From the IMG/VR virus record IMGVR_UViG_2648501230_000017: a stretch of DNA of 4,497 nucleotides, one strand, 5' to 3'. The stretch's first letter is position 1; the number at the start of each line of letters is the position of its first letter. The stretch comes from a virus (taxonomy: Duplodnaviria > Heunggongvirae > Uroviricota > Caudoviricetes). The notes below the pieces were generated by a model. The model did not search any database. It worked only from the letters and a program-made list of their open reading frames with translations, and was not told the origin of the DNA. Position numbers and translations under genes: made by a program. Of the stretch, positions 2,969-3,720 are shown piece by piece.

Positions 2969-2997
2969 TTGCAGAATTAATTACGCACCATTATTAT
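2969..2997 (+). promoter_or_regulatory. candidate sigma70 promoter for the tRNA cluster (-35 TTGCAG, 17-bp spacer, -10 TATTAT)
   Basis: TTGCAG at 2969-2974, 17-nt spacer, TATTAT at 2992-2997. Predicted start about 3004, just before the mature tRNA 5' end at 3007. Confidence 0.45.
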
Positions 2998-3006
2998 TCT
3001 GCTACC

Positions 3007-3082
3007 GGCCCTTTAGCTCAGTGGTGAGAGCGAGCGACTCATAATCGCCAGGTCGCTGGTTCAAATCCAGCAAGGGCCACCA
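3007..3082 (+). tRNA. ileZ: tRNA-Ile2 (anticodon CAU, lysidine type; ileX/ileZ-like; formally could be tRNA-Met)
   Basis: 76 nt cloverleaf folded by hand: acceptor GGCCCTT/AAGGGCC, D-arm GCTC/GAGC, anticodon loop CTCATAA (CAT), T-arm GCTGG-TTCAAAT-CCAGC, discriminator A, encoded CCA. The anticodon arm CGACTCATAATCG resembles E. coli ileX as I recall it. Confidence 0.9.
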
Positions 3083-3089
3083 TCACATA

Positions 3090-3166
3090 CCGCCATTAGC
3101 TCATCGGCAGAGAGCGTCAGCTTTCGAAACTGGCTGTGTGGGGCCCGGGTCCCCGATGGCAATCCA
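3090..3166 (+). tRNA. tRNA-Arg(UCG)-like, degenerate (argN-like; possible pseudogene)
   Basis: 77 nt with tRNA architecture: D-arm GCTC/GAGC, anticodon loop TTTCGAA (U33, anticodon TCG, A37), encoded CCA at 3164-3166. Atypical features: the first two acceptor pairs are C:A mismatches, the anticodon stem has one C:A mismatch, and the T-loop is CCCGGGT rather than TTCRANY. Confidence 0.45.
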
Positions 3167-3179
3167 TTATCTGCATTAT

Positions 3180-3256
3180 GCGTTGTTAGCTCAGCCGGAC
3201 AGAGCAATTGCCTTCTAAGCAATCGGTCACTGGTTCGAATCCAGTACAACGCGCCA
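3180..3256 (+). tRNA. argO: tRNA-Arg (anticodon UCU; reads AGA/AGG)
   Basis: 77 nt canonical cloverleaf: acceptor GCGTTGT/ACAACGC, D-arm GCTC/GAGC, anticodon stem ATTGC/GCAAT with loop CTTCTAA (TCT), T-arm ACTGG-TTCGAAT-CCAGT, discriminator G, encoded CCA. Confidence 0.9.
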
Positions 3257-3393
3257 TATTCATTCTTCCAGATTTCTTCCGGCAGAGCCTTATACTGGAA
3301 TATACCTGGCTCAGTATATTGTTGAAAATATTATATGTTTGTCAAAAATAAAAGTTCTGTTAAGTATTGATTGAGTGTTTGTTATACGGTCTA

Positions 3394-3720
3394 ATGGTTT
3401 TTTCAGTATTAAATATTTATCATTCATATGGTGTGGGTAGAGTGAATATTGATGAGGCGTCGGGGTGTTTCATCCTTAGGCAGCGTATTGATATAGTCAA
3501 TGCAGCACGAGCAAAGGCCTTCAGCCGTTTGACAGTTTTGTTCTGTACTCCTGATCGTCTTTTGGGAAGAGACGTTATTATTCTGAATAGTGATGCTATA
3601 CAGAGGGTTTGCGATGAGTTCATGGTTGCTAATTCAGAATTATTTGCTCTTGTTCAGGAGTACAACAGAATAGCCAGGACCTGTGGTATGGATGAACTTC
3701 GGATTACTCATCTGGGGTAG
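3394..3720 (+). CDS. hypothetical cargo protein at the position occupied by stxAB in Stx phages; rare-codon-rich; start uncertain
   Basis: ORF open from 3367 (TTG) to TAG 3718-3720; first in-frame ATG at 3394, alternative GTG at 3433 and 3442. Of 11 Arg codons, 3 AGA, 3 AGG, 1 CGA, 1 CGG and 3 CGT; of 10 Ile codons, 3 ATA. No recognisable motif and no clear Shine-Dalgarno. The first ~60 nt are very AT-rich, so the real start may be internal. Confidence 0.5.
   Translation: MVFSVLNIYHSYGVGRVNIDEASGCFILRQRIDIVNAARAKAFSRLTVLFCTPDRLLGRDVIILNSDAIQRVCDEFMVANSELFALVQEYNRIARTCGMDELRITHLG

Follow-up and report, generated by a model that had tools for sequence, protein, structure and literature searches.

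The Shiga toxin (Stx) phages 933W and Sp5, the latter residing in Escherichia coli O157:H7 Sakai, carry a cluster of tRNA genes, ileZ-argN-argO, between the antiterminator gene Q with its terminator tR' and the lysis genes. Discussion of prophage tRNAs for the codons AUA and AGA/AGG has mostly centred on the help they give in translating late genes or toxins. Morons, the extra genes in the late operons of lambdoid phages, are said to be autonomous inserts consisting of a promoter, a gene and a terminator, a concept associated with Hendrix and colleagues. On the E. coli chromosome, tRNA genes also stand at the 5' end of the thrU-tyrU-glyT-thrT-tufB and metY-rimP-nusA-infB operons, where they are co-transcribed with protein genes and processed by RNase P and RNase E. 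Here we analyse a 4,497-nt stretch of viral DNA (Caudoviricetes; IMG/VR record IMGVR_UViG_2648501230_000017), hereafter the window, which is the Q-to-lysis "moron" region of a lambdoid E. coli prophage, Stx-phage-like but stx-free. An initial annotation of this DNA had proposed that its tRNA cluster and the small rare-codon gene that follows, here called the cargo gene, form one promoter-driven unit separable from Q-dependent late transcription.

The arrangement in the window is an ordinary variant of the known tRNA module: the tRNA genes and their order are those of the Stx phages, and the same TTGCAG-17-TATTAT motif lies 9 nt upstream of ileZ in Sp5 and 933W. In contrast to Sp5, where argN is intact and a strong terminator stands after argO and before stx2A, in the window argN is degenerate, the terminator is missing and a gene for a protein of 92 amino acids (aa) occupies the place that stx has in Sp5. 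With moderate confidence, we read the locus as a tRNA moron with its own promoter that has lost its terminator, so that transcription would read through into the cargo gene as far as the terminator of an STnc100-family small RNA (sRNA) gene. The features concerned, all on the + strand, are:

2969-2997, +: predicted sigma-70 promoter of the tRNA module, TTGCAG (2969-2974), 17 nt, TATTAT (2992-2997)
2998-3006, +: discriminator and very short leader, TCTGCTACC, with a predicted start near A3004
3007-3082, +: tRNA-Ile2, anticodon CAU, ileZ type (ARAGORN; Rfam 72.5 bits; RefSeq tRNA-Ile; Sakai ileZ2)
3090-3163, +: degenerate argN-type tRNA-Arg(UCG) pseudogene (Rfam 22.2 bits, gathering score 29; no ARAGORN call)
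3180-3256, +: tRNA-Arg, anticodon UCU, argO type (ARAGORN; Rfam 70.1 bits)
3257-3441, +: AT-rich, C-poor leader without a terminator, 185 nt (GC 27-36%, C 5-12%), at the site of the relatives' terminator
3442-3720, +: cargo coding sequence, 92 aa, GTG start (phrog_2873; mechanical open reading frame 3367-3720)
3756-3887, +: gene for a DUF3927 small membrane protein (Pfam DUF3927, E 1.7e-27; RefSeq annotation), neighbour of the cargo gene
3953-4142, +: STnc100-family sRNA gene (RF02076; Rfam 132.4 bits versus a gathering score of 47; model positions 1-206)

What had been described as a tRNA cluster contains two intact genes (3007-3082 and 3180-3256), but the middle element at 3090-3163 is a pseudogene that scores 22 bits. 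Compared with the intact argN of Sp5, it has substitutions in the 3' acceptor end, the anticodon stem and the T-arm, and its anticodon loop still reads TCG. A quite different degenerate sequence fills the argN slot in a sister lineage (AR_0086, mEp460).

Promoter of the tRNA module

The -10 hexamer of the predicted promoter ends 9 nt before the start of tRNA-Ile2 at 3007. Its sequence, spacing and coordinates had been given exactly, but the description of the site as near-consensus was an overstatement, as it matches the consensus at 8 of 12 positions (3/6 in the -35 hexamer and 5/6 in the -10). Two further results speak against a promoter here. A consensus scanner with a threshold of 4/6 per hexamer made no call for the 2969-2997 site, and shuffles of the window gave about 2.6 sites per strand at or above the position weight matrix (PWM) score of 9.3 that the site obtains, so that the site alone, third in rank on the + strand of the window, is at chance level; the exact pattern TTG-N20-TATTAT has an expectation of 0.07 occurrences in the window. 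Taken by themselves, the 8/12 match, the missing scanner call and the equal-score sites in the shuffles would suit the explanation that the motif is a chance match, and that both the tRNAs and the cargo gene are transcribed from the late promoter PR' under Q, on induction only.

The significance of the promoter comes from the comparison with related loci and not from its score in the window. The comparison set comprised 120 IMG/VR loci that share the 5' half of this tRNA, which with the window makes 121. At 110 of the 121 loci, a TTGNNN-16/17-TAnnAT motif ends 8-10 nt before the tRNA; the spacing of the hexamers is 17 except for two variants with 16, and TATTAT is almost invariant, whereas the spacer and the DNA preceding the -35 vary across at least 12 unrelated upstream contexts. 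Computed without any motif filter, the information content per position peaks in the two hexamers, with 1.27 bits for the -10 and 0.95 for the -35; the spacer reaches 0.74 and the sequence further upstream 0.40. The motif is absent from only 11 loci, and these differ in architecture, with the tRNA starting 5 nt past the stop codon of a coding gene. Many E. coli matches to the tRNA module start at window position 2968, right at the -35, and Sp5 of Sakai keeps both hexamers despite four substitutions in the spacer. In mEp460, the -35 of the tRNA promoter directly adjoins the T-tract of tR', and PR' transcripts halted at tR' therefore cannot supply the tRNAs.

This footprint of a promoter agrees with published data on Sp5. 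By differential RNA sequencing (dRNA-seq), Sy et al. 2020 (PMC7547250) report a primary transcription start site (TSS) for the homologous tRNAs of this Stx2a phage, in a culture that was not deliberately induced. Since tR' and ileZ are only about 160 nt apart in Sp5, the TTGCAG-17-TATTAT motif is the obvious candidate for the published TSS. A Q-independent tRNA promoter of an Stx2a relative is already in the literature in this form; a search of the literature for promoters of ileZ, argN and argO returned nothing useful. With hexamers and spacing retained in so many contexts, with the motif missing only where the tRNA abuts a coding gene and with this published start site, a chance match is very improbable. 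We consider the promoter at 2969-2997 very probably functional, and Q-independent expression of the tRNAs is a well supported prediction. That the promoter is separable from Q, as the initial annotation had it, is borne out by the conserved hexamers and by their position downstream of tR'.

Of 38 variants, 33 have exactly 9 nt between the -10 and the tRNA, and all fall within 8-10 nt. With the usual spacing of 7 nt, transcription would start near A3004 and leave tRNA-Ile2 with a leader of about 3 nt. A leader of 0-3 nt before tRNA-Ile2 would be unusually short for an RNase P substrate. The discriminator is TCTGCTACC in the window, with 5/9 G+C, and CCTGCGCCC or TCTGCTCCC in the relatives; a G+C-rich discriminator is expected at stringently controlled promoters.

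Loss of the terminator after tRNA-Arg(UCU)

In the relatives, a hairpin of the form GGCTCGC-TTTT-GCGGGCC with at least five T (T6 in the Stx2-type example; approximately -12.8 kcal/mol) follows within about 10 nt of the last tRNA. This intrinsic terminator is present in 42 of 49 Ile-Arg(TCG)-Arg(TCT) modules, and in the Stx2 phages the argO terminator precedes the stx2A start codon by about 60 nt. The window belongs to another class (Ile, decayed Arg, Arg(TCT)), in which 19 of 26 loci have no terminator. Its homology to the terminator-bearing relatives ends about 8 nt past the CCA; a terminator scan of 3256-3367 made no call, and the RNA fold of 3254-3400 was no better than that of shuffles (z +1.07). 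The absence of a terminator between the last tRNA and the open reading frame, stated at the outset from the letters of the window, is thus confirmed, and the comparison adds that a terminator is usual at this place and has been lost in this lineage. The fused arrangement is widespread, as 1145 of 5426 complete E. coli genomes, about a fifth, cover at least 80% of positions 2900-3800. Among the seven Ile-Arg-Arg loci that fail the terminator test, the one inspected (L094) has a weakened, mutated argO terminator (CCCTCGCTCGCTTTTGCGGACC...), and variants of this kind could leak the tRNA promoter into downstream cargo.

As the relatives have both promoter and terminator, the ancestral tRNA module was a full moron, with promoter, tRNA genes and terminator. 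In the window, the module still has its own promoter and no longer a terminator of its own. It resembles the lambdoid morons as an extra gene set in the late operon with its own promoter and with expression expected from the repressed prophage; it differs from them in carrying tRNA and not protein, and because the terminator boundary is lost, two morons appear fused.

Downstream of the tRNA promoter, the STnc100 gene supplies the first strong terminator, at 4112-4142 (hairpin 4112-4133 followed by a T-tract). The initial annotation had placed the next convincing terminator at this point; it is real, and it belongs to the sRNA. A weak terminator-like hairpin with three GC pairs lies inside the cargo frame at 3556-3574. 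As a terminator it was set aside as incidental, for it has three GC pairs and the corresponding stretch of a locus with a divergent cargo homologue (L124) forms no similar hairpin, as judged by reading the sequence. STnc100/PasD-type prophage sRNAs are found between the late promoter and the lysis genes, and the window has a full-length match to STnc100; here the sRNA gene is a neighbour outside the tRNA module, which would only mark the 3' end of a read-through transcript. In a preprint, the STnc100 family is described as prophage-borne (bioRxiv 10.64898/2026.05.13.724894). In many related phages, the STnc100 sRNA comes directly after the tRNA terminator, while in Sp5 an sRNA of this family follows stx2B with the antisense AsxR adjoining; no match to AsxR or AgvB was found in the window.

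From this layout we infer the following course of events. A sigma-70 promoter of the stable-RNA type at 2969-2997 would start transcription about 3 nt before tRNA-Ile2, and RNase P together with RNase E would release tRNA-Ile2(CAU) and tRNA-Arg(UCU). Because the promoter is located downstream of the PR'/tR' switch, the tRNAs would be made in the lysogen without Q. In the absence of a terminator, polymerases from the tRNA promoter should run into the 92-aa and DUF3927 genes and stop at 4112-4142, and the cargo would be translated from the tRNA transcript. On induction, Q-modified polymerase coming from PR' would also cross the whole region toward the lysis genes.

The cargo gene and its linkage to the tRNAs

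Read-through would be of consequence only for a genuine gene, and there is a case that the cargo frame is an accidental open frame in an AT-rich spacer, with no cargo to co-express. RefSeq/PGAP has nothing annotated at 3367-3720, the protein has no Pfam or NCBIfam match, polymorphisms among close relatives comprise seven nonsynonymous and three synonymous changes, and translation-initiation signals are weak, with no strong Shine-Dalgarno sequence before any candidate start codon. The comparison with distant homologues decides otherwise. Against the phrog_2873 profile, the frame gives an E value of 1.1e-68, with residues 10-117 aligned to positions 1-108 of the 108 in the profile. An exhaustive search delimits a family of proteins of 91-95 aa, with identity down to about 30% and invariant residues in common. 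The window and L124, whose homologue is 55% identical, both keep this frame open at 71% nucleotide identity, whereas every other frame contains 4-15 stops; the ratio of nonsynonymous to synonymous substitution rates (dN/dS) is 0.27 over the 92 codons from GTG 3442 and 0.86 over the 24 codons upstream. The AlphaFold2 (AF2) model of the protein, a helix, a beta-hairpin and a helix, is confident (mean pLDDT 88.9). By these comparisons the cargo frame is a real gene, and an accidental frame can be dismissed almost entirely. The protein had no sequence match in the PDB, and Foldseek searches of the PDB and of viral models returned generic helical-hairpin matches only (E at least 0.04).

The coding sequence most likely extends from 3442 to 3720, which would leave an untranslated leader of 185 nt, because the distant homologues begin at the residue that matches GTG 3442 and dN/dS drops there. 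The gene had first been presented as a rare-codon open reading frame beginning at 3367; its rare codons and its reality stand, but the start is moved to 3442. TTG 3367 and ATG 3394 are the other candidate start codons. The cargo frame is rich in the codons read by these tRNAs: AUA, AGA, AGG and CGA together reach 8.5-9.8 per 100 codons, compared with 0.9-5.6 in the other genes of the window. A homologue not accompanied by tRNAs is also fairly rich in the same codons (5.4-6.0 per 100), so that much of the codon bias of the cargo gene seems to reflect an AT-rich origin.

The tRNA genes and the cargo coding sequence lie on the same strand with no terminator between them, as expected of a tRNA-mRNA operon. 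As in the tufB and metY operons, the tRNA genes lead toward protein-coding genes, and the processing mechanism put forward in the initial annotation would be that of these operons. Those operons are, however, experimentally established and conserved, whereas in the window the linkage is lineage-specific and the co-transcript a prediction, and a 185-nt AT-rich leader with promoter-like sites lies between the tRNAs and the cargo gene.

The locus could also consist of two units. The promoter would then serve the tRNAs only, with RNase E processing, H-NS-assisted termination or Rho termination truncating its transcripts shortly past tRNA-Arg(UCU), and the cargo would be expressed from a promoter in its own leader or else only from the Q-antiterminated late transcript. 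Several observations point in this direction and weigh against a single unit. The leader contains promoter-like sites at 3322-3349 (PWM score 9.4) and 3367-3395 (8.2), which score like the tRNA promoter, so that the cargo gene may have a promoter of its own. An AT-rich leader of 27-36% GC would be typical of H-NS-silenced DNA, and a cut by RNase E after the CCA would leave a cargo mRNA with a 5'-monophosphate, which may be unstable. The relatives' tRNA module is self-contained, with its own terminator, and the relatives do not bear out a linkage between the tRNAs and the cargo coding sequence. In L124, a YdeO/GadX-like AraC gene ends 22 nt before the start of the cargo homologue, and the interval from the methylase gene to the AraC gene is free of tRNAs. 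In L127, it is located about 50 nt past a strong terminator and has its own ATG, with an upstream purine-rich GAAGGG that we read as a Shine-Dalgarno sequence. The recurrent partner of the cargo gene is DUF3927, also found downstream in L127, and not the tRNAs. As its homologues are unlinked to tRNAs elsewhere, the junction looks like a by-product of recombination and not like a selected unit.

On the other side, the 3254-3400 region contains no hairpin terminator. Rho prefers C-rich loading sites, and with 5-12% C the leader would be a poor one, which speaks against a rut site. The promoter-like sites of the leader, moreover, lie beyond the reach of a conservation comparison, since the nucleotide homology between the window and the divergent homologue in L124 begins only at 3365. 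We regard a promoter confined to the tRNAs as a serious but less likely possibility. The proposal of one promoter-driven unit is upheld for the Q-independent promoter and for the lack of a terminator between tRNAs and cargo, but it is weakened by the cargo homologues that occur without tRNAs in L124 and L127. The junction of tRNAs and cargo is, to judge from these alignments, a lineage-specific recombination joint, and a co-transcript would be a lineage-specific fusion, plausible and mechanistically reasonable. For read-through as we favour it, a material contribution of the tRNA promoter to cargo expression in the lysogen may follow, which we put forward tentatively.

Some further observations concern the same segment. 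The top promoter-like site of the whole window is on the minus strand at 3345-3318 (TTGACA-16-AACAAT) and is aimed at the tRNA genes; it may be a spurious product of AT-rich DNA. The leader at 3257-3366 was also considered as a remnant of the DNA that precedes the AraC gene in L124; this was rejected because the best match was 14 nt, a length reached by 15 of 300 shuffles. In L124 (164-1261), the cargo homologue is in frame with the AraC regulator gene, which is psr/patE-like by resemblance, and this hints at a functional pairing; that homologue is likewise left unannotated by PGAP.

The surrounding late region and implications

The remaining features of the window place the module within the late region:

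413-778: C-terminus of a DUF968 protein and RusA, the first genes in window order
787-1329: Q-like antiterminator gene, with matches to DUF1133 and Phage_antitermQ
1326-1354, +: candidate late promoter PR', TTGATT-17-TTCAAT (PWM score 6.9), overlapping the stop codon of the Q-like gene
1409-1440, +: tR'-type intrinsic terminator (fold of 1360-1445: -37.2 kcal/mol, z -6.2)
upstream of the methylase gene: winged-helix open reading frame of 65 aa
1908-2957: N6/N4 DNA methylase gene
within the open reading frame 4168-4437, minus strand: iraM (anti-adapter) homologue, broken at 4401 by an IS2 end

The PR' at 1326-1354 is a candidate, and the layout of mEp460 is alike; in the absence of Q, the terminator at 1409-1440 would stop its transcripts. 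A weak isrK-like Rfam match (21.6 bits) spans 1363-1436 over the tR' region, and a short, constitutively terminated StxS-like transcript may arise at PR'/tR' (1326-1440). The closest complete genomes continue on the + strand with an esterase gene and then a holin-lysozyme-Rz cassette, so that the Q-dependent late transcript has to traverse the entire tRNA-cargo region. The tRNA module accordingly stands inside the late transcription unit, between Q and the lysis genes.

A terminator-like hairpin with a T-tract lies at 1744-1761, on the stop codon of the winged-helix frame and 5' of the methylase gene. An article in Nucleic Acids Research (NAR) 2023 (PMC10810198) describes lysogens in which the genes for a prophage methyltransferase and a winged-helix protein are co-transcribed. 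A Q-independent transcript entering the tRNAs by way of such co-transcription was rejected as a candidate, as the annotation of phage PA8 places the methyltransferase gene next to the integrase end and not downstream of Q. Between tR' and the tRNA promoter, Sp5 (L003, approximately 1607-1720) keeps the last 100 nt or so of the methylase gene, and the Stx2a arrangement thus looks as if it arose by deletion from an ancestor that, like the window, carried the methylase gene. At the other end, the last 97 nt of the window (4401-4497) are the terminus of IS2, a 100% match in thousands of plasmids, where the copies are annotated as IS3-like element IS2 family transposase; the iraM homologue disrupted by it here is intact in related genomes.

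Having a conserved promoter of their own, the tRNAs probably occur in all lysogens and could there alter how rare-codon, horizontally acquired genes are translated. A more far-reaching idea, which we consider speculative and unlikely to hold in full, is that a near-leaderless tRNA-Ile2, starting 0-3 nt before the mature 5' end, and a rare-codon gene under the same constitutive promoter that supplies its tRNAs would make up a self-sufficient lysogen cassette and, by extension, that the argO terminator would insulate stx2 in the Stx2 phages. A short terminator alone separates the constitutive tRNA promoter from the downstream cargo, which in the Stx2 phages is stx2A. The lineage of the window, found in about one complete E. 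coli genome in five, provides a natural example of the loss of this insulator, and it would offer a test of how far the tRNA promoter reaches into a moron in uninduced cells.

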